Shown: piece after piece, positions 487-28,981 of the stretch
How positions within the stretch are numbered: position 1 is the stretch's first letter
How the letters are laid out: each line of letters starts with the position of its first letter
Assembly (NCBI GenBank): GCA_965218425.1
Contig: OZ244621.1
Location: forward strand, 1,184,001-1,248,000
DNA from: an uncultured Candidatus Binatia bacterium
GTDB lineage: Bacteria > Desulfobacterota > Binatia > UBA9968 > CAXXLF01
Direction: 5' to 3'
Length of the DNA: 64,000 bases
Notes under the pieces: model-generated
What the model saw: only the letters and a program-made list of their open reading frames with translations
Told to the model about the DNA's origin: nothing
Database searches by the model: none
Position numbers and translations under genes: made by a program

Positions 487-619
487 CCGGCGTCATGCCT
501 GCCTTCTTGCTGTTCTGGGTTCCCTTCCCTTTCGGATTCCAGCTTGTATTGTGCCAGCTCTCTTTTGCAATCTCCTGTCCGTTTGGACGCGGTCCACCAA
601 AGCATGGATGCGGTTCTTT
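487..619 (-). repeat. Repeat module B, copy 1 (3' end of a RAYT-like transposase gene)
   Basis: GGGTTCCCTTCCCTTTCGGATTCC...TGTCCGTTTGGACGCGGT recurs at ~9766-9897, ~20905-21014 and ~22877-22990. The minus strand reads RVQTDRRLQKRAGTIQAGIRKGREPRTARRQA*. Confidence 0.85.
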
Positions 620-622
620 ATC

Positions 623-755
623 GTCGGCGTAGCGGATCAACAATAATTGAGAATGGCCTGGAAAATCCGAGAAATTCCGGGGCGAAACGACCCGTAAATC
701 GCCCATGCAAAGCCCCTTAAAGGGGTGTGCATCGACCGCGCTCGATGCCGCCGGA
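623..755. repeat. Repeat module C, copy 1
   Basis: TCGGCGTAGCGGATC..AATAATTGAGAATGGCCTGGAAA..CCGAGAAATTCCGGGGCG... is near-identical at 6065-6195 and diverged at 23036-23140. Confidence 0.85.
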
Positions 756-759
756 AACA

Positions 760-1055
760 GAAAAACGTCATGCATGCTGGGAGTCGATACGGGCCGAAAC
801 GAGCGCGGTGGCGTGGTCGTTGGCGGGTTCAGATTCAGGATTACTTGATTGCCGTTGTGCAGAACATCGAGCTGATGATTGTTCATGCACGGCCAAAACC
901 CAGAGCCGTATTGGCGGCAGCAACGAGGTCGGTCATTCGCTTTGCGGCCCCCCATCCAATGGTCTTGCAGCAAGCCGTCATAGCTTGAGCAAACAAACAC
1001 GTTATAGCTCGATTGGATCTATTGCGCTATTGAACCGACGTTTGGGCAACAGACC
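760..1055 (+). mobile_element. Remnant of a DDE IS (IS1182/IS5-like): transposase C-terminus plus probable right terminal repeat
   Basis: ORF 725..988 contains RYGPKRARWRGRWRVQIQDYLIAVVQNI, typical of IS1182-type transposase C-termini. TTTGGGCAACAGACC at 1041-1055 resembles an IS end. Confidence 0.6.
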
Positions 1056-1129
1056 GAAAAGATTTGACCCCTTCGCCGGAGGCCGCCATGCGGTCGGTCC
1101 ACATCCTCTGCCCAGGTACCGGGACCATA

Positions 1130-1232
1130 ACGGGCGCGTATCGATCACCCCAGCGGGTAGGAGCATTATCTCCCTGGGAGGCTCCGTCCCGCCGGGGATC
1201 TTGACGGCTGTGGCTACGCAGTAGAAAGGCAT
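1130..1232 (-). pseudogene. N-terminal fragment of a Mu-like prophage I (head protease) protein
   Basis: EPPREIMLLPAGVIDTRP resembles the conserved N-terminus of Mu-like gpI proteins; it then breaks into unrelated sequence. Confidence 0.45.
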
Positions 1233-1281
1233 CCCCCCTTATACAATATGTGGTGGAGTGTACAAGGCCCAGGCACAATAT

Positions 1282-2142
1282 CTATATGTCGTTGTCGGGT
1301 TCTTTGGGTGGGTTATCGGAGAGATGGGTGTCCGTTGTGGACGGCCGCTCGGGCGATGGCTCCTCTTGAGAGACCTTTTTCTTTGGCGTCCGTTTTTTTT
1401 TCGGGAGCGAAATCCTGACCTGCTCAAGTTCAGATAGCGCGGCATCGTTCAGCAAACGTCGTATCCCGGCGAGGATGTCTTCCGGGGGCAACGCGATCCG
1501 ATAGTCTCGTCGGATCTTGTGCCGAATGGCACTGATGACGGGCTCGCAAAGTATCGCCCGGAGCAGGCTGCGGGGGTCGAGAACTTTTGTTTTGCGCCAC
1601 AACTCGTCCAACGCTCCTCGTCGGATATTTCGATGGGACAGGAGTTCCAGTCCATCGGCAATCACGGACATCTCGGACGTTACAAAGTCCCACGAGTAGA
1701 TGAGTTGGGTCTGCGGAGGCTGCTCGAATAAGATGTGATAGAGCCGCCACTCTTTAGAGTTCGTGAGGAGCATCCATTCGCAACCCGCGTTGATAGCATA
1801 GGACACGGCTTGACGAATGTGTTTCGATCCGAGCTCGACGTTAACCCTCTTGATCTCCACCACGATTGCCGGCTTCGCGTTGTCGGTGCCATCTACGCAT
1901 ATAGTGAAATCCATGTGCTCTGTTTCACCTGCGCCGCGCACCGCTTTTTCACGAGAGAGGTGCTTGAAGGGGTCGTACCCCATAAGGAGTTCGAAAACCC
2001 GCTCTACACGTCTCCTGGTTTCCGCCTCGTTGCAATCAAGTCGTTCCGCCTCTTGGATCATGTGCTGGGTGTCGACGATGTTACGCCGGAGAACCTTGTC
2101 CACAGACTTTCGTTCCATTTGGAATGCCTCCTTAAGCAGCAT
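1282..2142 (-). CDS. Standalone HsdR N-terminal-domain (PD-(D/E)xK) restriction-like nuclease
   Basis: Motifs NEAETR...LLMGYD...SRE...MDF...VEIKR...QAVSYA...WMLLTN..EWRLY; no helicase domain. Confidence 0.8.
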   Translation of the reverse strand: MLLKEAFQMERKSVDKVLRRNIVDTQHMIQEAERLDCNEAETRRRVERVFELLMGYDPFKHLSREKAVRGAGETEHMDFTICVDGTDNAKPAIVVEIKRVNVELGSKHIRQAVSYAINAGCEWMLLTNSKEWRLYHILFEQPPQTQLIYSWDFVTSEMSVIADGLELLSHRNIRRGALDELWRKTKVLDPRSLLRAILCEPVISAIRHKIRRDYRIALPPEDILAGIRRLLNDAALSELEQVRISLPKKKRTPKKKVSQEEPSPERPSTTDTHLSDNPPKEPDNDI

Positions 2143-2247
2143 AAATTGACCGAATTTCAGGGCCGCTCATAAAACCATCCTCTGCATTGAATCGCTACTT
2201 ATTTATTTTCTGAGATTGTACTCGCCAAGGAAGCGTCAGTAAAGAGG

Positions 2248-2403
2248 TCAAATCTTTTGTTGACAAATAACATCTTCCAGATTCTCCAGCCGCCTCCAAA
2301 ATCTTCTATCTGCCTCACGCTTTAAGTGAATCCCATGGCACGCCCAGCCCACTGCACCGCAACTCTTCACTCCATACTCCCTGGCTGCTTCCACCAACGT
2401 CAT
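2248..2403 (-). pseudogene. C-terminal helical/HTH fragment of a RAYT-like transposase
   Basis: TLVEAAREYGVKSCGAVGWACHGI...DRRFWRRLENLEDVICQQKI*, with the stop inside the terminal repeat. Confidence 0.6.
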
Positions 2404-2409
2404 GTCGCT

Positions 2410-2992
2410 TGGCCTCTTCATCTTTGACCTTGAAGAACGCCCGGGCTCTTCTTTGCGCGAAGCTGCCTCTGCCCGCACGGATCGGGATCTGGAACGCCTG
2501 AGAGAGATTGTCGATGATGTCCTGGCGTCTCTTTATCTGCCGCCCTTCGGCGGTGTTGGGGGGGTGGTAGTTATTTTTTAGCGGGGTGGAAGATTGGGGT
2601 ATGTCGTCCTGCCTCATTTTGAAATCGGGCAGGCCGTAGGCGTGCGGGTCCTCTGCTATAGCGGGATTGGGGGTATATCCTTCGGGACTATCAACCCTTC
2701 CCGGTCCGCCTTGGTTTTGATCTTGATACACTCCTCCGCCCACTTCCTGTATCTTTCCGGTTGGGCTCCCTTCCTTGATTCCAAGGAACGATGGAACTCC
2801 TTCCATTCCTTCAAGGAAGAATACAGTGTTGGCGGGTCTATTGTTGAGATTAATTCCTCCTGGTTCGGTGTCATAGTATATACTCCCAAGCGTGTGAAAA
2901 TACCTGAAGGAATCTTCTACGATATCCGCATGCCGGCTGTCAAGGGTCGTGGCGTAATCGACATAACCGAACCGGTGAGACACTCGCCACAC
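2410..2992 (-). pseudogene. Fragment of a phage/MGE large polyvalent-type protein
   Basis: ORF 2315..2992 contains RRQDIIDNLSQAFQIPIRAGRG...ARAFFKVKDE, reminiscent of virion-injected polyvalent proteins. ORF 2656..2889 overlaps in another frame. Confidence 0.35.
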
Positions 2993-2998
2993 TATGTC

Positions 2999-3484
2999 CT
3001 AGTGAATCCGTTGCGCGTCATCGGCCGTCAATTTTTTTTCGTTCACTCTCACTTGGATCGCCAGTCTCACGGCCTCGCTTACGTTATCCAGCATTCTCCT
3101 CAATCGCCTTACGCCTTTTTGTTGAGACTGCCAATCCTTAAGCTCCTTTGTCATCTTGGCCGCATATACGCTGCCATTGGAGCCAACGGCCACTATGGAA
3201 TCCATGCCTATGTAAGTTAAGGCCAGTACGTCATCCGGGCTCAAGGGCCTCATTCTCGGATGATTGTGGTACAGGGTGATCTTGCGGTTGGCCTCGCTCA
3301 TCGTTTTCTTTAGATCGGGGGTAAAGGATATCTCCGACTTCTGATGAACACTCCCGGCGTGGGAATTGCCGCTGATACTATCGACCAACACCATATGCTC
3401 GAAGCCGTCCTGCTCCCCTTTCCCTAAGACGTGTTCTATCGCTCGCTTCGGCGCTTCTGAGGTAATGCCTAAGGCACATCCCAA
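2999..3484 (-). CDS. JAB/MPN-like domain protein (HNHP motif), probably a phage head-morphogenesis or polyvalent protein fragment
   Basis: E..EHMVLVD...ITLYHNHP...LSPDD..... IVAVG fits a JAB-type metal motif. Confidence 0.55.
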   Translation of the reverse strand: MGCALGITSEAPKRAIEHVLGKGEQDGFEHMVLVDSISGNSHAGSVHQKSEISFTPDLKKTMSEANRKITLYHNHPRMRPLSPDDVLALTYIGMDSIVAVGSNGSVYAAKMTKELKDWQSQQKGVRRLRRMLDNVSEAVRLAIQVRVNEKKLTADDAQRIH

Positions 3485-3519
3485 CTTTCCTCCCCTCGTT
3501 CTCCTCTCCTCTGCAGCTC

Positions 3520-3681
3520 CTCACCGGATCTTCCACCCCCCATAGATCGTGTGCCTGTGAAACCGTCTTCAGAAATTCCCCATAGTCGGCCCTGCTGAGG
3601 AACACCTTTCGGCGGGCGGATCCCCGGGTTCATCAAATGATGGACTGCACCCCGATATTCAATGCGTAAGGGCCGAGACAT
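3520..3681 (-). pseudogene. N-terminal fragment of a REP-associated tyrosine transposase (RAYT / Y1_Tnp)
   Basis: MSRPLRIEYRGAVHHLMNPG, then after a frameshift VFLSRADYGEFLKTVSQAHDLWGVE. This is the canonical RAYT start; it stops before the HUH motif. Confidence 0.8.
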
Positions 3682-4110
3682 TGAAAGCCTTAATTACAGC
3701 TCACATCCCAATTATCGACAAAAGACTTGACCCCATCGCCTCGCCGGCGCCCCGGTTGTGTCCGGTCGTTTGCAGGAAGACGCGCGGGCAATCGAACGCT
3801 GCAAGGGTCGTGCATTTGGCCAAATTATAATATCCCATAGGCCAAAATATTTCAGTTTGACAACCCGCCTGCGACTCATCGATCCTATAATGTGATCAAA
3901 CCCTTGTGTAACGGTGATGATGAACTCCAATCAACAGAGCCTCCTGTGTCGGGTCTTGTGCCGAATACAATAACCCAACCAAGGTTCGGATTAGCTATCC
4001 GAGCTGGGTGAATAGGCAGAACTTCACACATTATCTCTGCGATAGTTGCAAATAGCCCGGCAATTTCGCCCGGTCATAATATTTCTCTAACTAGGAGGTT
4101 TCGATTCGAA

Positions 4111-5610
4111 ATGAAAACGATATGTGGGATTTTTACAGGCATGATAGTGTTCGTGGCGCTGGGTTGTGGAGGCACAAGCTCTAGTTCCAATTCCAATTTG
4201 CTCAATCAGAGTCCCGCGCTTAGGTACCCTGGTCGGGATTATCGTAACACCGCGGGAGTGGATATTCGTGATACCTGGAAAGAGACGAGCCCTATAAAGT
4301 CCCATTTCGGCCTGGAGCCTGGGGGTACGCCAATCGGCGGTCTTATTGATCATGCCGATCTTCCACAATTCAAAACGTCCGCGTGGACAATCCTGGGGTC
4401 AAAGAACGGTATCACTTACGGACAACAAATGTCGGGTCCCACAGACACCATCGACATTGATTTCACCGGATACTTTGCGGAATTGCCCGACTACGTGCAG
4501 GGCGCGCTGGAGCGGGCGGGGAAGTCCTGGTCTTATAGGCTGACCGACAAACTGGGTTCGCATCTATCAACGGATTCGCCTGTGACTGGGGTTACTAGAG
4601 TGGACGGACGAATTCCACCACGCAGCGTCGATGGTATTCTGATTGATATCGATTCCGATTATAACAACCCCGCGTGGGATTATGTTTGGGGGTATTCTCG
4701 TGGGACTTATCGGACCACTCAGACGGTAGGGGGGGACTTTACGGTCAGGACTGGTTGGGTCGATTTGGCGGCAACTACTATCGAGCAGGGTGATAGTTGG
4801 CTGGCACATATCGCTTCTCATGAAGTTGGTCACGCCATCGGACATAGTGCGACACATAATACGTTGCCAGAGACCATTGCCCGTTATGTGGACTTTGACC
4901 GGGGAGTATGGACCGGACCGGCATTGACGGCGGCTAATCGAGGCAGGAACGTGCCTTTCCAGGACCTTGACGGCGAAACGGATTTTGGTCACTTGGGTGC
5001 TTGCGCCATGATTATGTCCTATTGCGGTAATCCGATTGAAATCCCGCATGAGTTGGATTTCGCTTTCATGAAGGACATTGGCTACACCGTGGAGGACTCC
5101 TATCCTACAGTGCCCGAACAATACAGTTACGGCGCATGGGCGGAACATTCGGCTTGGGGTGTGTTGGCGGCTAGAAGTTTGACTTTCGCTTCCTATGGTA
5201 TAACCGATCATATTACGGTGCAGGCAGATGCCTTCGGGAACCCATCTAACACGGATTTTGCTGGTTCACATATCGGGACGCTACAGTGGAACGGTTCCTT
5301 ATTGGCGACGGATTTGGAGAAATTCGCGCCGGTTTTTGGCGATACACGTATTGTGTTGTCAGGTGACACCTTGGACGGCACTGTCTCATTTACGAATCTC
5401 CGTACGGTAAAAGATGCGGAAGGCGAGGTAGCGCTCATGCCGTGGCGCAGAGCTAGTTTAGGGTACGGCGTCAAGGTGGAAGGGAATAGTTTCAGGGATG
5501 TCGGTGAAAAAGTCAGCGGGGATTTCTACGGCCCGCAACACGAGGAAGTGGCCGGTGTCTTGAACGATGGGCCTGCAAAAATTCTGGGGGCTTTTGGCGG
5601 CACCAGATGA
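4111..5610 (+). CDS. Lipoprotein: zinc metalloprotease (metzincin-like) domain plus C-terminal transferrin-binding-like beta-barrel
   Basis: Lipobox VALGC, HEVGHAIGH zinc motif, IMSY Met-turn, C-terminal GDFYGPQHEEVAG...GAFGG; SD AGGAGG upstream. Confidence 0.75.
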   Translation: MKTICGIFTGMIVFVALGCGGTSSSSNSNLLNQSPALRYPGRDYRNTAGVDIRDTWKETSPIKSHFGLEPGGTPIGGLIDHADLPQFKTSAWTILGSKNGITYGQQMSGPTDTIDIDFTGYFAELPDYVQGALERAGKSWSYRLTDKLGSHLSTDSPVTGVTRVDGRIPPRSVDGILIDIDSDYNNPAWDYVWGYSRGTYRTTQTVGGDFTVRTGWVDLAATTIEQGDSWLAHIASHEVGHAIGHSATHNTLPETIARYVDFDRGVWTGPALTAANRGRNVPFQDLDGETDFGHLGACAMIMSYCGNPIEIPHELDFAFMKDIGYTVEDSYPTVPEQYSYGAWAEHSAWGVLAARSLTFASYGITDHITVQADAFGNPSNTDFAGSHIGTLQWNGSLLATDLEKFAPVFGDTRIVLSGDTLDGTVSFTNLRTVKDAEGEVALMPWRRASLGYGVKVEGNSFRDVGEKVSGDFYGPQHEEVAGVLNDGPAKILGAFGGTR

Positions 5611-5932
5611 GACTGTTCGCAATCCAGCATATCCTATCCCGCGAGAGAAGATGATGGCACCCGGTAAGGTAAGTGCAGCATCGCGGCGGCCCTGCGCAAC
5701 CGGGTAGGGTGATCTACGTCAAGTGGCTACTCGGTACCGCGTTGCCTCAAGGGGCTGAAAGAGCTGCAATGGATCTTCATGTAATTGCCGGTGAGATCGA
5801 GTGTCTTTTGAGCTTCACTGGCGCATACGGCGAGCCCGCAATGTTTTCTAAGTAAGTCCCCGTTATGGACCTTCGCAAGTTAAGACGTACTTCAGTCTAT
5901 CGATCCTGGCGATCATAATACTTAGCAGCCCA

Positions 5933-5992
5933 TTGTGGGGGTCAGACCTTGACACTTGACATGATTCATCTCGCCTTCTCAAAAGTTATTGA
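5933..5992. repeat. Repeat module A, copy 1 (RAYT-element-like end)
   Basis: TTGTGGGGGTCAGACCTTGACACTTGACATGATTCATCTCGCCTTCTCAAAAGTTATTGA is near-identical at 9570-9628 and 22681-22740. Confidence 0.92.
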
Positions 5993-6000
5993 ACAAAGAC

Positions 6001-6063
6001 AAAAGGGTCAAGCCCTGGCAGGGTGGCGGTTGCAGCGGCCGTCAAACCTGAAAGGAGAAGACC
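6001..6063 (+). repeat. Repeat module D (GGGTCAAG end followed by an SD-like AAAGGAGAA); inverted copy at 9942-10006
   Basis: AAAAGGGTCAAGCCCTGGCAGGGTGGCGGTTGCAGCGGCCGTCAAACCTGAAAGGAGAAG versus the reverse complement of 9942-10006, AAAGGGGTCAAGCTCCAGTAGTGTGGTGGTTGTAACGGCCATCAAACCTGAAAGGAGAAG. Confidence 0.8.
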
Positions 6064-6064
6064 G

Positions 6065-6195
6065 TCGGCGTAGCGGATCGGAAATAATTGAGAATGGCCT
6101 GGAAAGTCCGAGAAATTCCGGGGCGGAACGACCCGGAAACCGCCCATGCAAAGCCCCTGAAAGGGCCGTGCATCGACCGTGCTTGACGCCAGCGA
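6065..6195. repeat. Repeat module C, copy 2
   Basis: Close match to 623-755. Confidence 0.85.
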
Positions 6196-6480
6196 TGCCC
6201 GAGCAATTTACTCACCAGGGCAGGTTCTTCCCGGACATGACAGCGTGGCGGGCTAACTTGCGGCTGAGGTCATGAATCCGCAGCTTATCCACCTAGGTGT
6301 CCGCATCGTTCTTCCGTTCCGCTCAGAGGCTAGGGCGTTACGAGCCGTTGAGCATCTGCCAGGCCGACGGCAACGTGCCTGTCGCTGGTTCCCTGTATGC
6401 ATGGCGCCGTGTTACACTTGCCACCTTTACCCGCGGGACAGGTGACGACGACGGCGAAACGCGCAGCGACAACAAAGAGG

Positions 6481-6684
6481 ATGACCGGAACGAACACGAA
6501 ACTGACGGCGGCTGTCGAAACCTATTTCGCCGATCTCTTACGGGTGCGCTCCTCGGGCGGCGCGACCGTGGAGCGGTCGAGCTACGGGCCGCTCGCCAAT
6601 CTGCTGAACGCGGCAGGCGCGACGCTCAAGCCGAAGGTGTGCTGCGTCGGCGAGCTTGCCGACCAGGGCGCGTGCGATGAATAG
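6481..6684 (+). pseudogene. Truncated N-terminus of a type ISP/IIG restriction-modification enzyme
   Basis: AVETYFADL..VRSSGGATVERSSYGPLANLLNA.G..LKPKV.CVGELADQGA, then an abrupt stop before the usual PD nuclease motif. Confidence 0.65.
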
Positions 6685-6695
6685 CCTTGTGAGAT

Positions 6696-6726
6696 GCACC
6701 ACTCTGGTGTAATATGGTGCTATAAC
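6696..6726 (+). promoter_or_regulatory. Putative promoter with operator for the RHH/R-M operon
   Basis: GCACCA (6696-6701), TGGTGT (6705-6710) and TGGTGC (6715-6720) half-sites overlap an extended -10 TG-C-TATAAC; SD GGAGG precedes 6745. Confidence 0.5.
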
Positions 6727-6744
6727 TGATCGGAGGGTTAGCGG

Positions 6745-6963
6745 ATGGTCGGAATGGAGGGACAGAAAGTGAGAAAAACGCTACCGCCACATCGTGTATC
6801 AGTGAGTTTCCCGCCGGAGTTATACGAGACTTTGGAAACGGTCGCGCGGCAGAAAAAAGTGTCGGTGGCGTGGGTCGTACGTGACGCGGCTGAGAGGTAT
6901 GTCGCTGAGCAATGGCCCCTGTTCGCAACAGATGACAGGGACCGATATGAACGATACAGATGA
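6745..6963 (+). CDS. CopG/ribbon-helix-helix regulator (probable R-M controller)
   Basis: RVSVSFPPELYETLETVARQKKVSVAWVVRDAAERY is a typical RHH fold pattern; the gene overlaps the REase start. Confidence 0.85.
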   Translation: MVGMEGQKVRKTLPPHRVSVSFPPELYETLETVARQKKVSVAWVVRDAAERYVAEQWPLFATDDRDRYERYR

Positions 6964-7762
6964 CGAATATTTGCGGATCGTACTTGATGCGATTCGAGTC
7001 TGTGCGCACTACAAGCCGAAATTCGGTCAGGGAGCGAAGGGCGGTGGTTTGACGTTGGAACAGTTCCGTGACCTCTATCAGGGAGACGCCTTCTATAGCT
7101 GGTTCGGGTTGGATAACCCGATGATGTACGCGGCACACAAGGCTGCCGGAGGCATGACGAGTGTGTACCGGCAGATCGGAATTGGGTGCGAGAGGTTGTT
7201 TCGCAGGGTGGTGAAAGATTCTTTCGAATTGTCAGAAGAAGATGTGACCTGGTCGTATCAGGTGACGTTGCCAAGTGGACGGAAGCGAACACTGTATCTA
7301 GACGGGCGGGTACCTCTTGAGAAGATCGGCAACAAAGACAAACGGGAGCGTTTCCGTGGGTGGATGAGGGATTCTGCGAAGATGCTGGATGTTGAACAGA
7401 AGGTATTCGAGAGCTTGACGGGCACGATTTTTGAGATCCGGCAGGGTTATAAGAGCAAGGACTCGAAACGGCAGAATGCCGATATCGCCAACGCTGCCAC
7501 GGCCTACACGAAAGGGTATTTTCCTTGCGCAGTGATCTTGTCGGGACAAATCGACAGCGATGTGCTTTTGCGGTACCGTGCCGAGAAATGGTCGGTTGTG
7601 ACAGGGATTGTCGGTGCAACAGACCCGCTGATATCGACATATGACTTCATGCGGAATGTCATTGGATATGACTTATCGGCGTTCTTTGAACGGAATAGTT
7701 CCACGCTTCGCGAGGAGATCGACACCATTCTGATAGCCCTTTTAGCCCCGGAGGCGACATGA
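6947..7762 (+). CDS. Type II restriction endonuclease (AvaII/HgiCII-like by recall)
   Basis: YRQIGIGCE...LYLDG...FEIRQGYKSKDSKRQNAD, a PD-(D/E)xK-type pattern; 4-nt overlap with the downstream MTase. Confidence 0.75.
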   Translation: MNDTDDEYLRIVLDAIRVCAHYKPKFGQGAKGGGLTLEQFRDLYQGDAFYSWFGLDNPMMYAAHKAAGGMTSVYRQIGIGCERLFRRVVKDSFELSEEDVTWSYQVTLPSGRKRTLYLDGRVPLEKIGNKDKRERFRGWMRDSAKMLDVEQKVFESLTGTIFEIRQGYKSKDSKRQNADIANAATAYTKGYFPCAVILSGQIDSDVLLRYRAEKWSVVTGIVGATDPLISTYDFMRNVIGYDLSAFFERNSSTLREEIDTILIALLAPEAT

Positions 7763-9006: not shown

Positions 9007-9081
9007 AGACGACTACGGATATGTAGTGGGAACAGTTAACGGATGAAGTGAAAGCAAAGAGTGATAAGCGATGTATCTTTG

Positions 9082-10437: not shown

Positions 10438-10515
10438 GTATTTAATTCCCTTTCAATGTAGTCGAGAGGGTCGAATGCATCGTTTTAGCTCCGGCGGATT
10501 GATGTGGCAGGCGGC

Positions 10516-11769: not shown

Positions 11770-11775
11770 TATGAC

Positions 11776-14756: not shown

Positions 14757-14901
14757 TGCTTGATACACCACAACTTCGGCGTCTCGCCGAGGACCATCTC
14801 CACGTTCCCACGACGCTTCATAACTAAACAATGAGAAAGTATCAGGTCCTTGTCTTTGTTCAAATTCACGATTGAAATGAGACGTTGGGGAGTATGTTGT
14901 C

Positions 14902-15111
14902 ATGAAAATATCAAAAGATGAAATTGAACTCATATCAAAGATCGCTGCCGATCACGAAATCAAAGGTGATGTGATCGTACAACTTCTTGAGCTTGAAGAG
15001 GAATTTCCAGATGTTCACGCGTGGGGAGCACGTGCAAATCTTAAACGTAAAATTGCTCAAACACTTGAGCAAGCAGCAAATCAGGCGAACCCGACCGATC
15101 CTAATCGATGA
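14902..15111 (+). CDS. Small Dnd-associated helical protein
   Basis: 69 aa, QLLELEEE..., with an ATGA overlap with dndD; resembles the small genes found between dndC and dndD. Confidence 0.7.
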   Translation: MKISKDEIELISKIAADHEIKGDVIVQLLELEEEFPDVHAWGARANLKRKIAQTLEQAANQANPTDPNR

Positions 15112-17144
15112 TCTTCAAACGCATACGCCTTGAGAACCTGTTTGCCTATAAGGGTATTCAGGAAATTGATCTTACGGGGTGCGGTAAGGGAAGGAACATT
15201 ATTCTTATTTCTGGCCGCAATGGTACAGGTAAAACAAGCTTTATCAATGCTGTCAAACTTCTATTCCTTGGCGCTAACGATCAGCGTCTGCGACGTGTTG
15301 GCTTCCCGCCTACGACTCTTGCCACAGGCCAATTTGTTCGGGGTGTTCCGGGCGTGTGGTCCGGTTTGTTCAACACTCAAGCGCGACGCGACGATTCTGA
15401 ACGAGCGTCAATATCAATCATTTGGGAAGAAGAAGATGGAGTTGAGTTTGAGGCCCGACGAAGCTGGCGTTTGAATGGTCCTAGCTACGAAGAGAACCTC
15501 GATCTATACAAAAACGGAGAAGCGTCAAATCCAGACGACGTCTCCTTGCAGCTTGCAGAAAAACTGCCGCACGACTTTGTGCCGTTCTTCTTTTTTGACG
15601 GCGAACAAATTCGTGAACTTGCCGAAGCGGAGGAGGATATCACTGCAAATGAGATCGAACGCATATTGAACCTCTCCTTTGTGGGCGAAATAGAACAGGG
15701 CGTGTCGGAATTCGTACGGCAGCGTCGCCGTGAGGCGCTACCCGAAGAAACGCAGGTTCGAATACGACGTGCCGAGGGAGAACTTGCCACGAAACAGGCA
15801 GAAAAAGCGGTGGCGGAAAGACGGCTGATGAATTTTCAAGAGGCCATCCAGAAGACCGAGTCCCGCAAACGTGAACTGACGGTCGAGAGGGACGAATTAC
15901 GTACCGGTGTTTCCGACGCGGACCGACTGCTTCTCGAACAACGCCTGGAGACGTTGGAATCGCAAAGATCGGATTTGGCCCGTAAGATCAGCGAGACTCT
16001 GCCGCCAGAGGCGCCGTTCCTCGCAAACCTTAAACTAACACTCCGCGCATACGGGGATGTAGAAACCGTCGTATCGGCACGAGCCGCTCAGGAACTTGGG
16101 AGGCTCGACACTCTACGTCGAGAACTGCCCCACCGGCTGCTGGATCAGGAGCCACACCCTGAAACGCCGCTCGACCCATCCCAGATTGAACACTTACGCG
16201 GGAAGCTCCTATCGCTCATAGAAGAATATACTACTCTGGAGACAGCAGATCAGTTGCCATCCTATCTCCGAACACTCGATCTTGCTAGCGCCCAGAGTTT
16301 GCGCGACCGTTACCTAATTTGGGTTCGCGAGGGCGTAAGACACAGACGTTCCATCGCCACAGAGTTACAACAGATACGCAAGCTTACTGTAGAGGCGGAA
16401 CAAACGACGGAAGAACTAGCCCGGGTATCTGTCGCGTCGAAGGGCCACCTTCAACGCTTTCGCGAGATATCCAAGGAGCTTGACGAACTCGATAATGAAT
16501 TAGCCGCTAAGCACGAGGATGTCGGAAAGGTTGAGGCCGAAATCTCTCAATGCGCGCGCACCATATCCGAAACCCGTAAGCAAGTCGCCGCGCTTGAAGA
16601 AGAACACGAACAAGCCAGAATGACTGGCCAGACTGTCCAATACGCAAGACATGTCGAGGCAGTTCTGCACGAATATAGAGCACGCCAAAGAGAGTTGAGG
16701 CGCACCTCTGTCGAAAAACGCATTAACGAGAAACTGGGTATTCTTCTAGCCGAACACGGACAAATCGGGCGCGTAAACCTCAGCAACCGGTTCATAATGA
16801 CGTATTATGACAAACATGATCAAAAAATTGGGCGCGTAAGTATTTCTGCCGGCATGAAGCAGCTCGTCGCAACAGCATTACTGTGGGCACTAAAGGACGA
16901 ATCCGGTAAGAAGATACCTCTGGTCATCGATACACCACTTGCTCGCATCGACCGCCGAAATCGCGCGCGTCTTTTGGACTCCTATTACCCTAATGCGGGG
17001 GAGCAGGTCATTGTGCTCCCCACAGACAGCGAGATTGATGACAGCCAGTTACTGCATCTCGCTCCACATATTGCCAAAAGGTACCGGATAGAGAATGTCG
17101 ACGGCGAAAACGCCAAGATTGTTCTGGATCAAACCAATGTCTAA
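15108..17144 (+). CDS. dndD: DNA sulfur modification protein DndD (SMC-like ABC ATPase)
   Basis: GRNGTGKTS, FFFFDGEQI, long coiled coil, ISAGMKQ, IDTPLARID, YYPNAGEQVIVLPTDSEI. Confidence 0.95.
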   Translation: MIFKRIRLENLFAYKGIQEIDLTGCGKGRNIILISGRNGTGKTSFINAVKLLFLGANDQRLRRVGFPPTTLATGQFVRGVPGVWSGLFNTQARRDDSERASISIIWEEEDGVEFEARRSWRLNGPSYEENLDLYKNGEASNPDDVSLQLAEKLPHDFVPFFFFDGEQIRELAEAEEDITANEIERILNLSFVGEIEQGVSEFVRQRRREALPEETQVRIRRAEGELATKQAEKAVAERRLMNFQEAIQKTESRKRELTVERDELRTGVSDADRLLLEQRLETLESQRSDLARKISETLPPEAPFLANLKLTLRAYGDVETVVSARAAQELGRLDTLRRELPHRLLDQEPHPETPLDPSQIEHLRGKLLSLIEEYTTLETADQLPSYLRTLDLASAQSLRDRYLIWVREGVRHRRSIATELQQIRKLTVEAEQTTEELARVSVASKGHLQRFREISKELDELDNELAAKHEDVGKVEAEISQCARTISETRKQVAALEEEHEQARMTGQTVQYARHVEAVLHEYRARQRELRRTSVEKRINEKLGILLAEHGQIGRVNLSNRFIMTYYDKHDQKIGRVSISAGMKQLVATALLWALKDESGKKIPLVIDTPLARIDRRNRARLLDSYYPNAGEQVIVLPTDSEIDDSQLLHLAPHIAKRYRIENVDGENAKIVLDQTNV

Positions 17145-17147
17145 GGA

Positions 17148-18647
17148 ATGACCATGGACAAATTTTATTTCGGACGAGATGAACGAGCTTTCATGTTCCG
17201 CGTGATAGAAAAAGGAATGCTGCAAAAGCCAGGCCAAGCTCCACAATGGTGGGTTGTACGCCTCGCCTTGGCAAAATCTTTACAATTCGAAGAGCCTCCC
17301 AACGATGATAAGTTTGCGCCGCCACCGCATGTCCAAGGCGGAAGCGAGTTGCACCTTGATCAGATTACCGGAAAAGATAAGGGCGGATTGGAAGATTATA
17401 CACGCGCGTTGAAGCTTTTGCTGTCGGCACGTCATGGTGCCGACCTTATAAGCAATGATGCACTTTTTGAAGAGACACTACACAGACATATACGCAGAGG
17501 TCTTCATGAAATAAAAATTTCGTGGCGTGAAAATTCTGATTTCTTTGATTATTTGTATCAAGATTTGTTCTTTGAGAAGTTTACAAACGAATCCGGTGAG
17601 ACAAGCCTCGGCGATATATCAAATGAAGACCTGACTTTAGCACTGCATAAGATAGGGGTACGCGTTGAGGTTGAACAAAAACTTGATGGCCCAAGATTGT
17701 CGCGCTTCAGACTTGTTTTATCCGGTGTCGACGATTACGACAAACTACGAAGAAACATCGACGATCTCAACTTTATTCTTGGTCTGAGTGCTAACAGCAT
17801 ATCGTTTGAATTGGGTGGGGGCGAACGCAGGATTGTCTTGGACATCCCGCGACCAATGTCCATCTGGCACTACATAAAATGGGCTGAGGCTCAGAAGGCT
17901 CTTCAGGAAACGTCCTACCGCTTGCCTGTCTGTTCGGCTACCGACGTTCTGGGCGTTCCCATTTCTTTTGATTTGGCCTCCGCGCCCCATCTCTTGATAG
18001 GCGGCACCACTGGTAGCGGGAAAAGCATCTGTGTCCACGCGATCATATTGTCGCTGATTGTGTGCGTTGAGCGCCCGGAGTTGGTTCTCGTTGACCCGAA
18101 GGCTGTCGAGTTGACGGCGTATACGAACTACGGAAATCTGAGAGGAGGCCGTGTCATTACAGATATGGCTGATGCGAGGGCTGTTTTTCAAGAACTTGTG
18201 AAGACGATGGACCAAAGGCAAAAGGACTATATGTCTATCGGCGTGCGCGACATCGACGAAGCTCGGAAAAAGGGTAGCGATGACCGCAGCATTGTGGTGG
18301 TCGTCGACGAACTGGCAGACCTTGTCCTAGGAAACCCAGAGGTTGTCGGTCCACTTGTCCGTCTTGCCCAAAAGGCGCGCGCTTTTGGCATTCATTTAGT
18401 GTTGGCCACACAGCGCCCAGAGGCAGGAACATTTCCCGGCCTGTTACGGTCCAACATACCAAGCCGTATCGCGCTGACTGTCCAGAAAAATTCCGAGTCA
18501 CGGATCATCCTGGATGAGGGAGGCGCGGAGAACCTGCTCATGCGGGGCGACATGCTTGTACGCATGGTCGGTCAGAAGACAATCCGCGCGCATGGCGTCA
18601 GCGTGTCGCAGTCGGATATCGAAAGGGTTCTTGCCGAACATGGCTAA
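17148..18647 (+). CDS. dndE: DndE-like domain fused to an FtsK/SpoIIIE ATPase domain
   Basis: The N-terminal PQWWVVRLALAKSL...GSEL...RHIRRGL is DndE-like. The C-terminal GPRLSRF, PHLLIGGTTGSGKS, LVDPK, VVDELADL, LATQRP and GAENLL.RGDML are FtsK motifs. No TM segments or gamma domain. Confidence 0.82.
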   Translation: MTMDKFYFGRDERAFMFRVIEKGMLQKPGQAPQWWVVRLALAKSLQFEEPPNDDKFAPPPHVQGGSELHLDQITGKDKGGLEDYTRALKLLLSARHGADLISNDALFEETLHRHIRRGLHEIKISWRENSDFFDYLYQDLFFEKFTNESGETSLGDISNEDLTLALHKIGVRVEVEQKLDGPRLSRFRLVLSGVDDYDKLRRNIDDLNFILGLSANSISFELGGGERRIVLDIPRPMSIWHYIKWAEAQKALQETSYRLPVCSATDVLGVPISFDLASAPHLLIGGTTGSGKSICVHAIILSLIVCVERPELVLVDPKAVELTAYTNYGNLRGGRVITDMADARAVFQELVKTMDQRQKDYMSIGVRDIDEARKKGSDDRSIVVVVDELADLVLGNPEVVGPLVRLAQKARAFGIHLVLATQRPEAGTFPGLLRSNIPSRIALTVQKNSESRIILDEGGAENLLMRGDMLVRMVGQKTIRAHGVSVSQSDIERVLAEHG

Positions 18648-19815
18648 CGAAGAGCGCAATATCCACATCCGCGACTTCCGTCTGGTTAAGCTCACACTCG
18701 TAGATGTTGGCCCATTTCGGGAGTATTATGAAATAGACTTTACTGGCGCACCGCTATCCACAGGTGCCGAGAAGGGCAGTGAAACCGCGTGCGAACCAGC
18801 AAATTTTTTCTTGTTACTTAGCAAGAATGGTTTCGGCAAAACCACGGCCCTTGAGGTGATCACGCTACTTTTTGATCTGCTCGGCAAATCTGAAGCTTCC
18901 CGTTTTGGCCATTACGACCTCGATGATGGCACGGGTAAGATACAGGCAGATTTTCGTGCTAACTGGTCTATCGACGACTCGCGCTCACCCGTCCTTCTTT
19001 CGATCTGGGCGGGAAGCGAAGGACCCGTTTATGTTTGGACCAAAAGTGATATCGAGTCTGTTGCGAATGCCTCTGAGTGGGCCAAGGTAGGCTTTGTACG
19101 TTCGCGATCATCAGACCGGATAGAGCTTGGGCCAGGAACAAACGAACTTGGCAAGATCCTCGCAACGGCTATCCGGCACGCGGTCGGCACACCGCCGCCA
19201 GCGCTGTTCGGAGAGGGTTTTGATCTGCCGACAGTGCTCTTCTTTCCAGCCGACCGCGCCGTAAGGCGCCCGCCACTTGCGGGCCGTGCAGTGTCGAGGC
19301 CGGAGCACTGGGGATATCGACCGTCCTTTCGGTTTGAAGTCGACGGGACTGAGTGGGCGAACTCCCTTGACAATTTGTTGGTTTGGCTCTCGTGGCTGGC
19401 GGACGACAGAGACCGTGTCTTGCGAGAATACGTTGAGAAAACCGTATTTATGGATGGCAGAAAAGGATTACTGGAAGTAGACCGTGAGCGACTATCCGCC
19501 AATGTCAAGACACCCGACGGGGTACATCCGCTCTACAACCTCAGCCACGGTGAAAGGCAGGTGTTGCAACTTCTTGTACGCACACCGGTCCACATGACGA
19601 ACAGCACGATTTTGCTGATCGATGAAGTCGAAATGCACCTGCATCCAAAGTGGCGGGTCACACTATTGGAAACGCTCAAAGTGCTTGTCAAAGATTTTGA
19701 GGGCCTTTCAGTAATTGTGACAACCCATGAGCGCGAACTCATACAGGTGTTTCAACATGAAGTGCCCGAAGAGGGCTTAGTGAAAGGTGGATTCTTGATC
19801 GAGCAGGACTTGTAA
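18640..19815 (+). CDS. ABC-type (AAA_15/AAA_21) ATPase, AriA/OLD-like
   Basis: Walker A variant SKNGFGKTT, signature LSHGE, Walker B LLIDEVEMHLHP, TTH; overlaps both neighbours. Confidence 0.85.
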   Translation: MANEERNIHIRDFRLVKLTLVDVGPFREYYEIDFTGAPLSTGAEKGSETACEPANFFLLLSKNGFGKTTALEVITLLFDLLGKSEASRFGHYDLDDGTGKIQADFRANWSIDDSRSPVLLSIWAGSEGPVYVWTKSDIESVANASEWAKVGFVRSRSSDRIELGPGTNELGKILATAIRHAVGTPPPALFGEGFDLPTVLFFPADRAVRRPPLAGRAVSRPEHWGYRPSFRFEVDGTEWANSLDNLLVWLSWLADDRDRVLREYVEKTVFMDGRKGLLEVDRERLSANVKTPDGVHPLYNLSHGERQVLQLLVRTPVHMTNSTILLIDEVEMHLHPKWRVTLLETLKVLVKDFEGLSVIVTTHERELIQVFQHEVPEEGLVKGGFLIEQDL

Positions 19816-20690
19816 TGCCGAACTTAAGAGAGCTGGGGGACAGCAATGCTGTTGATAATAAGTATGTCGACCGGATCGTGTTTTATGTAGAAGGTGAGGA
19901 TGATAAAAGTCTTCTGACTGTCTACTTGTTGAAGCATTACGTCTCTAAAGTTGAAGTCAAAACGCCATCAGCATTGGGAAGCGGTTACCTGGGGGTAATT
20001 CAACGGGTTAGCCAAGAGCGAGGTATGAACGGAAAAATCTTCGGCATAGTCGATGGTGAAGCGCTTTTGCCCTTGGGGCATGTTTCGATATACAAAGAGA
20101 TGTTTGGAGGATGGAATTGGATCACCCTTCCTAAATTTGACGGCATTTACTTTATTCCGTGTTGGGAGATAGAAAACCTTCTCTATATTAGAGATATTTT
20201 GCCACAGACGCTTATTGCCCTTCAGCCTGTATCGAAGCTCTCGCGTTTGACTGAAAGATCTGTCGAAAACATCATCCTGACGGAGGCATTCCGACTTTCA
20301 GAGTTATCTTCGTTGAATTTAGCACTTTTAGCAGAGTCGTATGATACAATAAGAGCAGAAACAAAATCGAACATTGAGAAAAGACATGATTTACTTACGG
20401 AAATTGGGACGACGATCGCCTCGTTAGATAAGGCTCACTTAGTGAAAAATGGGTATGATAATTGGAGGCAATTTTTTCGCGAGCTCCTTCGAGGGAGCCG
20501 AACACGAGACAAAATATACGATGAATTTATTAGTCGTGTTGACGGGAAGGCATTATCTATAAGATTGAGTAAAAAATTAAATGTTCAACCCGACATTCGT
20601 TCAACACTCGCGTACAATTTTTCCAATAATAAGAAAACAATGAAAATTATTGACGCGCTATTGGAAACGGTCAATCGGCGCGTTCCGTGA
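19815..20690 (+). CDS. TOPRIM-fold nuclease (DUF4435/AriB-like)
   Basis: IVFYVEGEDD, GIVDGE, WEIENLL and a C-terminal DGK; TAATG coupling to the ATPase; visibly AT-richer. Confidence 0.75.
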   Translation: MPNLRELGDSNAVDNKYVDRIVFYVEGEDDKSLLTVYLLKHYVSKVEVKTPSALGSGYLGVIQRVSQERGMNGKIFGIVDGEALLPLGHVSIYKEMFGGWNWITLPKFDGIYFIPCWEIENLLYIRDILPQTLIALQPVSKLSRLTERSVENIILTEAFRLSELSSLNLALLAESYDTIRAETKSNIEKRHDLLTEIGTTIASLDKAHLVKNGYDNWRQFFRELLRGSRTRDKIYDEFISRVDGKALSIRLSKKLNVQPDIRSTLAYNFSNNKKTMKIIDALLETVNRRVP

Positions 20691-20904
20691 ATTGTGGCTA
20701 ATCATCTGAAATTGAAGTATGCTTCAATAATCGTTACGCAAGCCGTTGCTCGTATTAACCTAAATTTTGCAGTTGATGCTGGTGCACAGCTATCGTTTGG
20801 AGGGTTTTTCAACCAGTTGGTGCAGTCTGAAGGGGCGTGAGCCATCGCTGTCGACCCGGTTGTCGACCTCCGGGATATTCTTTAACGCTTCGATCAGGAA
20901 TTAG

Positions 20905-21014
20905 TGTCGGGCACACTTTTTTGCTATTCTGGGTTTCCTTCCCTTTCGGATTCCAGCTTGAATTGTACCAATTCTCTCTTGCAATGTCCTGTCCATTTGG
21001 ACGCGGTGTTCTAA
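20905..21014 (-). repeat. Repeat module B, copy 3
   Basis: TTGCTATTCTGGGTTTCCTTCCCTTTCGGATTCC...TTGCAATGTCCTGTCCATTTGGACGCGGTGTTCTAA is closest to the copy at 22897-22990. Confidence 0.85.
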
Positions 21015-21232
21015 TTGGCCCTCTCCGACAGAAAGAACATTACCGTGAGGCGGCAATTAGCTACCCCAAGCAAACGGGCCGGCCGTCCCGCGAGACTGTG
21101 CCGTTATTCCAATCACTTGACACTGGGGTAAGTGCAGAATCGTGGCAACACGTAACTGCAATCTGGACGGGCCGGAGATCCGAAAGCTAGTTTCACGACG
21201 TGGAGGCTAGGCTGCCTCACAGTGTTTAGGCT

Positions 21233-22324
21233 TTATCGATTAGCATTCCGAAGTTCGCGATGAATGATCCGGTGACAGTTTGCGCATAGGCACATCAGGT
21301 CTTGCAGTTGCGTATTGTGTCCGGGCGGCATGTCGGCTAACGGAAGTTTGTGATGCACATCGATGCACGCATCACCGATATCGATCCCATAGACTTCTGC
21401 CGGATCTAGTCCGCAGCGTTCGCATAGCAATCGGCCGTGTTCACTTATGAACGCCGCCTTTTTTGCCGGTGCAAGCCCCCATCCCCGCTCGCGTTGAAGG
21501 TGGATTACATACTTCGGGTGCCCTTCGATCCAATCGCGTTCGTCCGGGTTTGGCGGTACTTCAACGGGTTGGACCGGCCCGTCCTTCGGGACGATCCGGT
21601 ATCCGGCGGCGGTGATCGCTTTGAAGCAGGGGGTTCCGATGCCACCCACAAAGTGATACGGCAAAACCTCGAAGCCGAGAGCTTCGGACACCGCTAGACC
21701 GAACACGGCCTTAGGTGCAAGGCGCGACCCGTCCTCGGTAATAACGTCATAGTCAGTGGATTCACCGAACGAATGCTCGCCTGAACCGAAAAGAAGCCGT
21801 TGCACCGCACGCCAGATGTGTTCGGCAGATACCGGCTGCAACTCTGCAGCCCGTAGCCTTTTGCGTCGGTTTGAGGCTGCGCCAGTCTCGCCCCAGCCTG
21901 CAATCCGGGCGATCCGCTCGCCGGGGGGATTTCCGGTAAATGCGAAACGAAGCCTTTTTGTGGAATTTCCACGGTTGTTTCGGTTGTTCGGATCACGACC
22001 GACCGCAGCCATTCTGTTCGAGAATCTGGTGAACAATTCAGACGGCGAAACCTGAGTGTCTTCGGGAAGGAGTATTTTTCTTTCCTCCATTGGCAAATTT
22101 TGGACACGACTGCTGTCTACCCACACTCCGACCAACGTCAGGTCCGATTGATCGATTCGCTCGAGAAGAATACGCAGTGCCTCACCATATTTAGTGTTTT
22201 GTGCGTTGGTGGTGTCTTTGGTTCCGCCGCGCGAATGCAAAATTAGTTTTCCTTCCTGTACTTCGAAATGAGCATCCATTGGAGTACCGGAATCATTGTG
22301 GAATTTGTATAAGGTTACCGACAC
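21233..22324 (-). CDS. HNH endonuclease, McrA-like putative modification-dependent (type IV) restriction enzyme
   Basis: C-terminal EG...HLQRER...CERC...IDVHH..PL...DLMCLCANCHRIIH; middle domain with APKAVFGLA...FVGG, like the ScoMcrA head domain. Confidence 0.8.
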   Translation of the reverse strand: MSVTLYKFHNDSGTPMDAHFEVQEGKLILHSRGGTKDTTNAQNTKYGEALRILLERIDQSDLTLVGVWVDSSRVQNLPMEERKILLPEDTQVSPSELFTRFSNRMAAVGRDPNNRNNRGNSTKRLRFAFTGNPPGERIARIAGWGETGAASNRRKRLRAAELQPVSAEHIWRAVQRLLFGSGEHSFGESTDYDVITEDGSRLAPKAVFGLAVSEALGFEVLPYHFVGGIGTPCFKAITAAGYRIVPKDGPVQPVEVPPNPDERDWIEGHPKYVIHLQRERGWGLAPAKKAAFISEHGRLLCERCGLDPAEVYGIDIGDACIDVHHKLPLADMPPGHNTQLQDLMCLCANCHRIIHRELRNANR

Positions 22325-22680
22325 AACCGGATCCTATCGTGTTTGTTGTCTGCGTCCCAGGCCTCGTGCATCATGAGCTGGGCCCGCGACAGCGCATTAC
22401 CGCCGCCTACATTGACCCGGTCGGCCAATGAGACTCCAGTGATCTGCGTCATCACGCCCTCGATCGCGCATCGACCGGGCAAATGCAGAGGTGGCGTGGG
22501 GGCATGCGGCGCAGCATTCTTTGTACTGACGAGCAGCGGTTTTTTGCCGTTCTTACGGCAGTTCTTGCTGATACGCATAGGTGGAATACCAAGGGTGCTT
22601 CAAGGGGTGGTAGTTTAGCAAATTCCGCCTCGGATCGCTTGTGGTTTTTTTCGTCCTCTCGAGCGAAATTGGAGCCGATG
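22325..22680 (-). pseudogene. Fragment of a TPR-like hypothetical protein
   Basis: ALSRAQLMMHEAWDAD..HDRIRLCR, truncated at the HNH gene and at repeat A. Confidence 0.35.
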
Positions 22681-23140
22681 TTGTGGGGGTCAGACCTTGA
22701 CATTTGACATGATTCATCTCGCCTTCTCAAAAGTTATTGAGGGAGCACTAAAGCTCTCCCGCCACTGTCGCCCCCCAGGTTGCACTGTCCCGACACCACG
22801 AGGTGGCGGCTGCTGCAATATGCGTCAAGACCCCGTCGCATGACGTGGAGCGGCTCGGCCATGTCGTCTTTTGAAACCGGAGTCATGCCCGCCTTTTTGC
22901 TATTCTAGGTTTCCTTCCCTTTCGGATTCCCGCTTGTATCGTGCCGATTCTCTCTTGCAATGTCCTGTCCATTTGGACGCGGTGTTCTAACCAGCGCAAC
23001 CCACGGCTCATCACTCCGTCATCACGGCTTGAATATCGGCGTAGGCGGACGGAAATAATTGGATATAGGCCGGAAACCGGCCGGATTTTCCGGGGCATTT
23101 AGGGCTCGAAAAAGGGCCCTGCAAGGGCCGTTAAATCGGG
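22681..23140. repeat. Composite repeat (A + spacer + B + diverged C)
   Basis: Direct repeat of 9570-9871. The minus strand reads RDDGVMSRGLRWLEHRVQMDRTLQERIGTIQAGIRKGRKPRIAKRRA* (RAYT-like C-terminal helix). Confidence 0.88.
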
Positions 23141-28972: not shown

Positions 28973-28981
28973 AGTTTCATT

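Follow-up and report, generated by a model that had tools for sequence, protein, structure and literature searches.

Repetitive extragenic palindromic (REP) sequences occur at the join-points of duplications, build mosaics known as bacterial interspersed mosaic elements (BIMEs) and carry inserted IS110 elements. The role that REP-type systems and their REP-associated tyrosine transposases (RAYTs) play for or to their hosts is still debated. In a part of Tobes and Pareja (2006, PMC1525189), REP sequences are described as preferred targets of insertion sequences (ISs), among them the IS110-family elements ISPpu9, ISPpu10 and ISPa11, and as hot spots of genome plasticity; a part of Bertels et al. 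(2017, PMC5581495) describes RAYTs as typically single-copy. Here, we analyze a 64-kb stretch of the genome of an uncultured Candidatus Binatia bacterium (G000:C1:1184001-1248000, hereafter the window), in which a family of repeat modules separates defense and other accessory genes. A sequence-only reading of this stretch proposed that a Y1/HUH transposase family and its non-autonomous ends act as an integron-like platform that captures, shuffles and truncates defense genes, a role for which it knew of no described case; given the published description of REPs as IS targets and plasticity hot spots (PMC1525189, as far as the part cited above goes), this was an overstatement. We put the probability at about 60% that the repeats are ends of several transposable elements, nested and decayed, which serve as hot spots of insertion and recombination in a 36-kb accessory island, of which the region forms the larger part. 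The locus shows a known phenomenon at unusual density and is no new integron-like machine.

The source genome (G000) is a single 4.46-Mb contig in which our own crude codon-usage gene caller predicts 4,123 open reading frames (ORFs). We searched 40 relatives in all, including one of the same genus (G001) and one of the same family (G002), and annotated cargo from Pfam, PADLOC and NCBIfam. A repeat search located four modules, A to D, where they had been read from the sequence. Module B lies at 487-625, 9765-9903, 20901-21039 and 22877-23015 (67–100% identity to the reference copy), module A at 5933-6005, 9569-9641 and 22681-22753 (84–100%), and module C at 622-749 and 6063-6190 (90%), with a weak 41-nt copy at 23036-23076 (76%); module D forms an inverted pair, 5998-6063 and 9943-10008, that is 82% complementary. 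In a 298-nt repeat (9574-9871 and 22686-22983, 92%), A is joined to B by a spacer that we named A2. The combinations B-C, A-D-C, A-(A2)-B-invD, B and A-(A2)-B-C were borne out, and GGGGTCA/TGACCCC-type ends are present, but position 2244 reads GAGGTCA and 6005 reads GGGTCA. Comparison of the window with the genome added repeated stretches in the same gaps, at 750-1074, 2239-2422, 3472-3739, 3809-3907, 6196-6278 and 23077-23238. An Rfam scan of window positions 1-26000 returned no match at E ≤ 1, and the modules are thus not explained by any known RNA family.

Modules A and B trace back to transposase genes that survive elsewhere in the genome. Two of the four Y1_Tnp matches in G000 are intact genes of ~325 amino acids (aa), one of 329 aa at 2583267-2584253 and one of 323 aa at 1404083-1405051. 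Both proteins match Pfam Y1_Tnp (E values 1e-13 and 3e-17) and Bac_DnaA_C, a DnaA_C-like helix-turn-helix (HTH) domain, and contain HFH/HVH and RYIHLNP, which we take to be the HxH motif and the catalytic tyrosine. To judge from their sequences, both are RAYT-related, not certified RAYT members. The 329-aa gene lies between the two arms of an inverted repeat of ~22 nt; the right arm is the B terminus, the inverse of the upstream motif. In gene orientation its unit runs from a left terminus through the N-terminus, B, A2 and A to a sharp end ...GGTCTGACCCC; B itself ends ...GGCAAGCCTGACNCCGG, beyond which copies diverge into different continuations. The 323-aa gene is bracketed by inverted GGGGTCAGACCTTGACA, the A terminus, and the last ~45 nt of A resemble its last codons. 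Each of A and B is thus the right end of a Y1 element, and the two elements are paralogous.

These elements have decayed extensively. By tblastn, the 329-aa protein has ~60 fragments in G000, mostly of its last 30–77 residues, with B corresponding to residues ~292–329; at four loci residues 1-59 are joined to 253-329, as in internal-deletion derivatives. The Y1+HTH family is present in 37 of the 41 genomes of the order with 1–17 matches each. These copy numbers and the ~60 decayed fragments of the 329-aa type differ from the single-copy, domesticated, vertically inherited state of a RAYT. R3472, a repeat in which a leader and ~20 codons of a third RAYT-like gene follow a GGGGTCAAGTC terminus, is by its sequence the likely left end of a third Y1 gene. 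The proposed origin of the repeats from Y1/HUH (RAYT-like) elements and non-autonomous ends of these therefore stands for A and B, which are 3' Y1 gene ends with termini. That B translates as a RAYT-like tail is confirmed by tblastn, in which the last 30–51 residues of the 329-aa protein align to all four window copies; the RAYT N-terminus placed at 3681 is weakly supported by 9 of 20 residues matching residues 12-31 of the 323-aa protein (pairwise E = 1e-5).

The description of the whole mosaic as RAYT-derived holds for the Y1 tails A and B but not for D, which appears to be the 5' end of an IS110-family element, nor for the 325 nt after C, which are the 3' end of an IS1182-family element. 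Together with a 39-nt stretch, S, D comprises a leader, a Shine-Dalgarno sequence, an ATG and an IS110-type N-terminus, of which at most 55 codons survive anywhere in G000, too few for a Pfam match; its ...VGID.HK... motif is presumably the IS110 DEDD transposase signature. The two intact IS110 genes of G000 belong to a different element. No intact copy of the D-type element is left, and one intact copy of each Y1 gene (A and B types) survives. D begins at (CC)GGGGTCAGGTAACATGAAAAAGGGGTCAAGC; the flanks upstream are unique in most of its 40 copies, and the junction sequences before GTCAAGCTCC are alike in different contexts. A composite unit, D-S-B, starts with CCGGGGTCAGG... and finishes with ...CCTGACNCCGG, inverted termini of ~11 nt, in about 20 copies, and appears to be a miniature chimera in which an IS110 stub is joined to a Y1 tail. 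When the unit at 9765-10034 is read on the minus strand from its high end, D (to 9943) supplies a GGGTCAGGTAACATG terminus with the IS110-type leader and start, S (9942-9904) a further ~13 codons, and B (9903-9765) the Y1 tail, which ends CCTGACGCCGG. Elsewhere, copies of the repeat R23077 (23077-23238) encode further residues of the IS110-type N-terminus. Because D has three cupin paralogues downstream, we considered D-S-B as a conserved cupin 5' regulatory region; this was dropped, as most D copies precede unrelated genes or none and a cupin counterpart in G001 has no match over the flanks.

The IS1182-family element is 1,624 bp long and present in 4–5 copies at 99.8%. Full copies score 306 bits against a cut-off of 270 and have 16-nt terminal repeats; the remnant in the window (750-1074) matches their 3' 295 nt at 96.6%. 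The element is still active elsewhere in the genome. Copies of this family, old ones and some young ones, abut GGGGTCAA(A/G)TCTTTT. D with its GGGGTCA motif was also considered as the IS1182 terminal repeat and rejected, because the terminal repeat of this element reads CGGTCTGTTGCCCAAA and the motif adjoins only some of its copies. All module families carry or abut GGGGTCA(A/G)-type termini.

These termini have been used repeatedly as insertion sites. Ten A2-A copies are 95.0% alike, compared with 85.0% for the 107 nt of B beside them (27 pairs), and in nine of the ten copies A2-A abuts B at exactly ...GACNCCGG / TTTCAAAAGACG. The higher similarity and the identical site argue that A2-A, an element of 196 nt, is younger and entered the B terminus time and again. 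Repeats other than A2-A also follow the B terminus. Reuse of termini as insertion sites makes elements nest and accounts for recurring composites such as D-S-B and B/A2-A.

Edges of copied blocks and truncated genes also fall at the termini. For a genome-wide census we merged the hits of a 13-module library into patches. G000 contains 109 patches; 12 islands, with a total length of 281 kb (6.3% of the genome), account for 100 of these. Whole-genome blastn hits (52 for B, 40 for D, ~20 for A and 13–15 for C) are far above chance. GGGGTCAGACC occurs 25 times, 18 of them in islands, and all seven occurrences of GGGGTCAARTCTTTT are in islands. We then asked of 20 duplicated non-IS blocks (at least 400 nt, at least 88% identity; 10 pairs of IS1182-type or IS110 copies and intervals with at least four partners were left out) whether their island ends lie within 10 nt of a patch. 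Of these ends, 20/60 do, compared with 4.3 expected from random placement, and none of 5000 simulations reached 20; the ends are not independent of one another. Two recent copies of non-island DNA, 3.9 kb at 99.0% and 1.15 kb at 97.2%, end exactly at TTGTGGGGGTCAGACC, the former with a Lon N-terminal fragment at its edge; the two originals lie near G000 1795.5 kb and 2793.2 kb. In the window, ORF 9061-9588 covers positions 2-129 of the 724-position PADLOC pAgo_II model and runs as an N-terminal stub into module A, which bears out the prokaryotic Argonaute (pAgo)-like gene said to be cut at 9570. The TPR-like gene said to be cut at 22680 was not recovered, with no Pfam TPR match at E ≤ 1 in the five ORFs abutting 22681.

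Could the modules instead be inert debris of old insertions, tolerated in dispensable island DNA and with no part in the arrival of blocks? The age of the B and D copies (~80–88% alike), the loss of every intact D-type IS110 copy, the many broken island genes and the general tendency of islands to collect mobile DNA would all fit. However, a passive graveyard does not predict a young A2-A element at one exact nucleotide, block ends at patches far above chance, two 97–99% copies of non-island DNA that stop at the terminal nucleotide of A, or intact Y1 genes with matching termini, and we regard this explanation as quite improbable.

Islands show a cassette-like architecture. Patches occupy 76 of the 131 island intergenic gaps of at least 40 nt, and the 88 inter-patch blocks have a median length of 1.65 kb, 37 of them holding one ORF of at least 100 aa. 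Genome-wide, 3,377 of 25,244 patch bases overlap an ORF of at least 100 aa from the crude caller, which upholds the earlier observation that the modules recur only between cargo blocks. Such one-gene-sized blocks are among the findings that favor active mobilization, in which a Y1 transposase would excise and re-insert DNA between left- and right-type termini and the islands would be arrays built by that enzyme. G000 and G001 have in common, at 97.4% and in different contexts, a 2,052-bp unit that combines a Rieske-type oxygenase gene with a Y1 left end and 56 N-terminal codons; GGGGTCAGGTAACATGAAAAAGGG forms its right boundary, and core DNA is 85–90% identical. An inverted A-type terminus pair (L015 6978-8318, equal to G000 2039739-2041079) has the layout of the one that encloses the 323-aa Y1 gene, but the 1.29 kb between its arms is non-transposase DNA, in which lie two ORFs of unknown family. 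Modules border two duplicated blocks at all or three of their four ends (1920469-1922611 / 2467877-2470018 and 1562765-1563438 / 2585569-2586215), and a cupin gene lies between inverted D units; its G001 counterpart (91%) gave no match over the D flanks.

Yet we found no cassette that occurs twice with intact termini on either side and has a clean empty site, flanking modules often differ in family or orientation, and the two recent captured blocks have a terminus at one end only. Hairpins are weak and strand bias is absent, the cargo is not enriched for a single function, and circle junctions were not seen in public reads, which are uninformative on this point. Islands built throughout by such an enzyme are thus unlikely. 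We entertain, tentatively and with some doubt, the idea that Y1 enzymes, using left and right GGGGTCAG termini of different decayed copies or one-ended events, could cut, copy and paste host genes into arrays of single-gene cassettes, many of them defense genes, without an integrase. The captured non-island copies that stop at the last nucleotide of a terminus, the terminus pair around non-transposase DNA and the 2-kb unit at 97% are consistent with such shuffling, and active capture by a Y1 enzyme is possible.

The defense-capture platform proposed earlier fares unevenly: truncated genes and copied-block breakpoints do lie at the ends, but the cargo is not defense-specific and nothing integron-like was found. 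By Pfam or PADLOC name, 59/311 island proteins (23/148, 24/141 and 12/22) are defense- or toxin-antitoxin-like; most of the others have metabolic, transport or unknown functions, and they include oxygenases, cupins, amidohydrolases, transporters, TonB proteins, transposases and unknowns. Seven of eleven N6_Mtase loci lie within 2.5 kb of a patch. Together, the two counts suggest that defense genes are concentrated in the islands and yet form a minority of the cargo, the concentration being judged from this one family tally and general background rates. GC content does not mark the island out (0.49–0.57 vs 0.54 for the genome). Module and gene orientations are mixed across the islands. None of 289 island proteins matches the tyrosine integrase family PF00589; a genome search gave five matches, and the two in islands are a pseudogene and a sub-threshold fragment, so that no intact island integrase was found. 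Nor did the islands reveal a common recombination site of fixed orientation, promoter logic or an attC-like site.

Comparison with relatives shows that the repeats vary between related genomes, a point in favor of the earlier reading. Synteny between G000 and G001 extends up to G000 position 1172533 and resumes at window position 24697; at the orthologous G001 site the island is absent, with flanks 5.3 kb apart and no modules, whereas the G000 flanks are 36.2 kb apart. A solo A sits in a 631-nt gap of G000 that measures 213 nt in G001. Beside this solo A lies a ~250-nt repeat (G000 ~2180312-2180562; L031 713-962) with ~45 matches in G001, a separate miniature element family and not an island module. 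A 440-nt composite is present in two of the 40 relatives, G001 and G002, and when 185,579 species genomes were scanned for exact matches to the A terminus, only four loci turned up, in two Binatia assemblies matching G001 and G002, which gave no sign of a wider host range. The composite junctions A/D/C, R2239/D and D-S-B recur in the islands of both. This recurrence in independently assembled genomes, the single 4.46-Mb contig and the 5–20% differences that keep copies distinguishable make it very improbable that the mosaic junctions are an assembly artifact, despite the number and similarity of the repeats, which would invite mis-joins.

Several observations weigh against reading the modules as nested ends that serve as hot spots. 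All gene calls come from our crude caller. The two Y1 proteins score 65.4 and 72.0 bits, below the cut-off of 80 of NCBIfam NF047646 (REP-associated tyrosine transposase). Gene conversion among A2-A copies could mimic youth, and 40/60 block ends lie away from modules. Convincing hairpins were not found at the termini: eight terminal stretches form stems of 4–5 bp (−1.3 to −7.9 kcal/mol), and folds of terminus DNA have z-scores of −1.1 to +1.2, no better than shuffled sequences and unlike classical REPs or IS200/IS605 ends. Single-strand Y1 transposition usually leaves a replication-strand bias, and with origin and terminus placed by GC skew alone we detected none (B 23/29, D 18/22, A 12/9). 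Excision or insertion is not seen directly. Five public runs contain parts of the stretch, four of which were aligned as short Logan contigs at ~2–10x; their joints (for example 2417>3472 and 6063/9878) are module junctions that exist elsewhere in the genome, and such paralogous joints in low-depth short contigs speak neither for nor against excision circles or mis-assembly.

We favor a model in which GGGGTCA-type Y1 termini would be preferred targets of their own miniature derivatives and of IS110- and IS1182-family elements. The Y1 enzymes, and formerly the IS110-type recombinase, would recognize these termini, and such self-targeting may concentrate insertions in few islands. Dispersed copies could then serve as breakpoints for the duplication, deletion and exchange of one-gene-sized blocks, whether transposase-mediated or recombinational. 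Defense genes would be found in the islands because such islands hold accessory genes generally, not because the repeats select them.

Table 1. Repeat modules and cargo in the accessory-island part of the window (window positions).
Feature	Position	Strand
Window part of the 36-kb accessory island (G000 1172.5-1208.7 kb)	1..24697	.
Module B, copy 1: Y1 gene 3' tail (last ~38 codons, stop) and terminus ...CCTGACNCCGG; RAYT_2583-type	481..625	-
Module C, copy 1; usually after D or before an IS1182-type remnant	622..750	+
IS1182-family 3' end remnant: transposase tail, terminal repeat CGGTCTGTTGCCCAAA; abuts GGGGTCAAATCTTTT	750..1074	+
HSDR_N_2-domain protein, restriction-enzyme-like N-terminal domain	1282..2142	-
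Repeat R2239, ~20 copies; start GAGGTCAAATCTTTTG; minus strand encodes tail of ORF 2315-2992	2239..2422	+
Repeat R3472: terminus GGGGTCAAGTCTTTT, leader, first ~20 codons of third RAYT-like gene (ORF 3469-3681)	3472..3739	-
Repeat R3809, 5 copies; follows B terminus elsewhere	3809..3907	+
Module A, partial: terminus TTGTGGGGGTCAGACCTTGACA and ~55 nt; RAYT_1404-type right end, interrupted by D	5933..5997	-
Module D: probable IS110-family 5' end (leader, Shine-Dalgarno, ATG)	5998..6063	+
Module C, copy 2, and repeat R6195	6063..6278	+
Type II restriction enzyme (6881-7762) and methyltransferase (7759-9006)	6881..9006	+
Truncated pAgo gene, end inside module A	9061..9588	+
A2-A, young 196-nt element (A 9569-9640, A2 9641-9764), directly after B terminus	9569..9764	-
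D-S-B unit, about 270–285 nt; terminal inverted repeat ~11 nt	9765..10034	-
DNA phosphorothioation (Dnd-type) cluster	10504..18647	+
AAA_21 ATPase and DUF4435 protein; weak AriA/AriB matches, PARIS-like	18514..20690	+
Module B, copy 3, solo	20901..21021 (repeat match to 21039)	-
HNH nuclease, weak type IV restriction match	21233..22324	-
A2-A (22681-22876) abutting B copy 4 (22877-23015), weak C-like 23036-23076, repeat R23077	22681..23238	-

The cargo of the window is listed in Table 1. The Dnd-type cluster has an unusual order (DndA, DndC, a DUF262/DUF1524 protein, DndD and a DndE-FtsK fusion): the DUF262/DUF1524 nuclease-like protein is GmrSD-like and corresponds to PADLOC Orf5/HEC-06, the DndE-FtsK fusion matches the C-terminal part of SspH, and no DndB was recognized in 10504-18647 with Pfam, PADLOC or NCBIfam. 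The block 5998-6678 is common to G001:C6 at 84% and includes ORF 6297-6680, which encodes 127 aa with no family match and no usable hit in an ESM Atlas look-up. Over the 3' part of this ORF the summed contig depth reaches ~500 in all four metagenome runs, compared with 2–30 elsewhere, and contigs have loose ends past 6672; it thus resembles a cut-off fragment of a gene that is widespread among the other organisms sampled.

Other repeats and islands of the genome deserve mention. Two islands hold related CRISPR-Cas loci (Cas6, Cas3, Cas8b, a Cas1-Cas4 fusion and Cas2) with 89% identical stretches that include flanking modules (G000 223424-226587 / 2765511-2768683 and 232761-233882 / 2774480-2775585). 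At 1678941-1680208 and 2778451-2779693 lie copies of two highly active ISs, a ~1.27-kb element with more than 20 copies and a ~1.25-kb element with about a dozen, most pairs being more than 99% identical; one copy of each sits at a module edge. A TonB-like protein (2756883-2758496) contains several near-identical tandem repeats of ~70 residues and has a paralogue with fewer repeats in another island. Outside the island, window positions 28802-29021 contain an unrelated ~220-nt repeat with internal GAAATCCGAAA-type sub-repeats and 32 hits spread evenly over the chromosome. The stretch 40108-42076 is repeated up to 20 times in the genome; within it, ~40982-42076 is a ~1.09-kb IS with ~20 copies at 99.3–99.9%, and the L001 copy encodes HTH and DDE_3 (IS630-type) proteins.

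The RAYT-related family described here is IS-like: fragments of its gene tails serve as non-autonomous ends, attract other elements and mark island seams. The dozen accessory islands hold most recognizable defense systems of the genome. Should the ends prove active, they would offer a tractable case of island assembly by the termini of single-strand transposases, and if Y1 enzymes do shuffle genes, RAYT/REP-type systems would gain a role not ascribed to them so far. The module library can help annotators of Binatia genomes to spot where islands begin and end, which genes are truncated (the pAgo stub, for example) and which blocks were duplicated recently.

Among known systems, REP/REPIN-RAYT loci share with this one a Y1/HUH gene flanked by a short inverted motif of which there are numerous non-autonomous copies as well, two inverted termini (as in D-S-B) and a lineage-restricted distribution (2/40 relatives here). 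They differ in that REPs are short palindromes with stable hairpins of 20–40 nt dispersed over the extragenic space of the chromosome, whereas the termini here are not convincing palindromes, the units are gene tails and leaders of 100–450 nt, and 100 of the 109 patches are confined to islands. RAYTs are typically single-copy in the part of PMC5581495 cited above; the Y1 gene here has left its many decayed fragments in the manner of an IS, and its proteins carry a DnaA_C-like HTH and fall below the NCBIfam RAYT cut-off. The probable IS110-family left end D and the IS1182-family ends lie directly beside the GGGGTCA-type motif, as expected from REPs serving as IS targets (PMC1525189, in the part cited), but the IS110-type element is a 5' stub fused to a Y1 tail, a chimera that multiplied ~20 times. 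No IS110-type guide RNA was identified by Rfam in window positions 1-26000.

IS200/IS605 elements, palindrome-associated transposable elements (PATEs) and the BIMEs of E. coli likewise insert beside a short end-like sequence without target duplication, have derivatives that keep the ends only and combine short modules into mosaics; unlike them, the modules here are longer, come from coding sequence, and yielded no detectable subterminal hairpins or strand bias. With integrons the islands share mostly single-gene blocks between recurring elements and a content that varies among relatives. They differ from integrons in that no IntI-type integrase, attI/attC-like site or hairpin-forming common site was found in them, the separators are heterogeneous transposon ends in both orientations and the blocks are mixed. 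One-ended rolling-circle capture by the HUH enzymes of ISCR/IS91 also joins foreign DNA precisely to one HUH-type terminus, but those enzymes have two tyrosines (Y2) and belong to another family, and no gene for one was seen here, where no search aimed at it was made. Finally, as in defense islands (Makarova et al., 2011), restriction-modification, Dnd, PARIS-like, pAgo, CRISPR-Cas, Shedu, TIR and toxin-antitoxin genes cluster with mobile debris; unlike in those islands, about four-fifths of the island proteins here are not defense-like by name, which makes these islands general accessory-gene regions.

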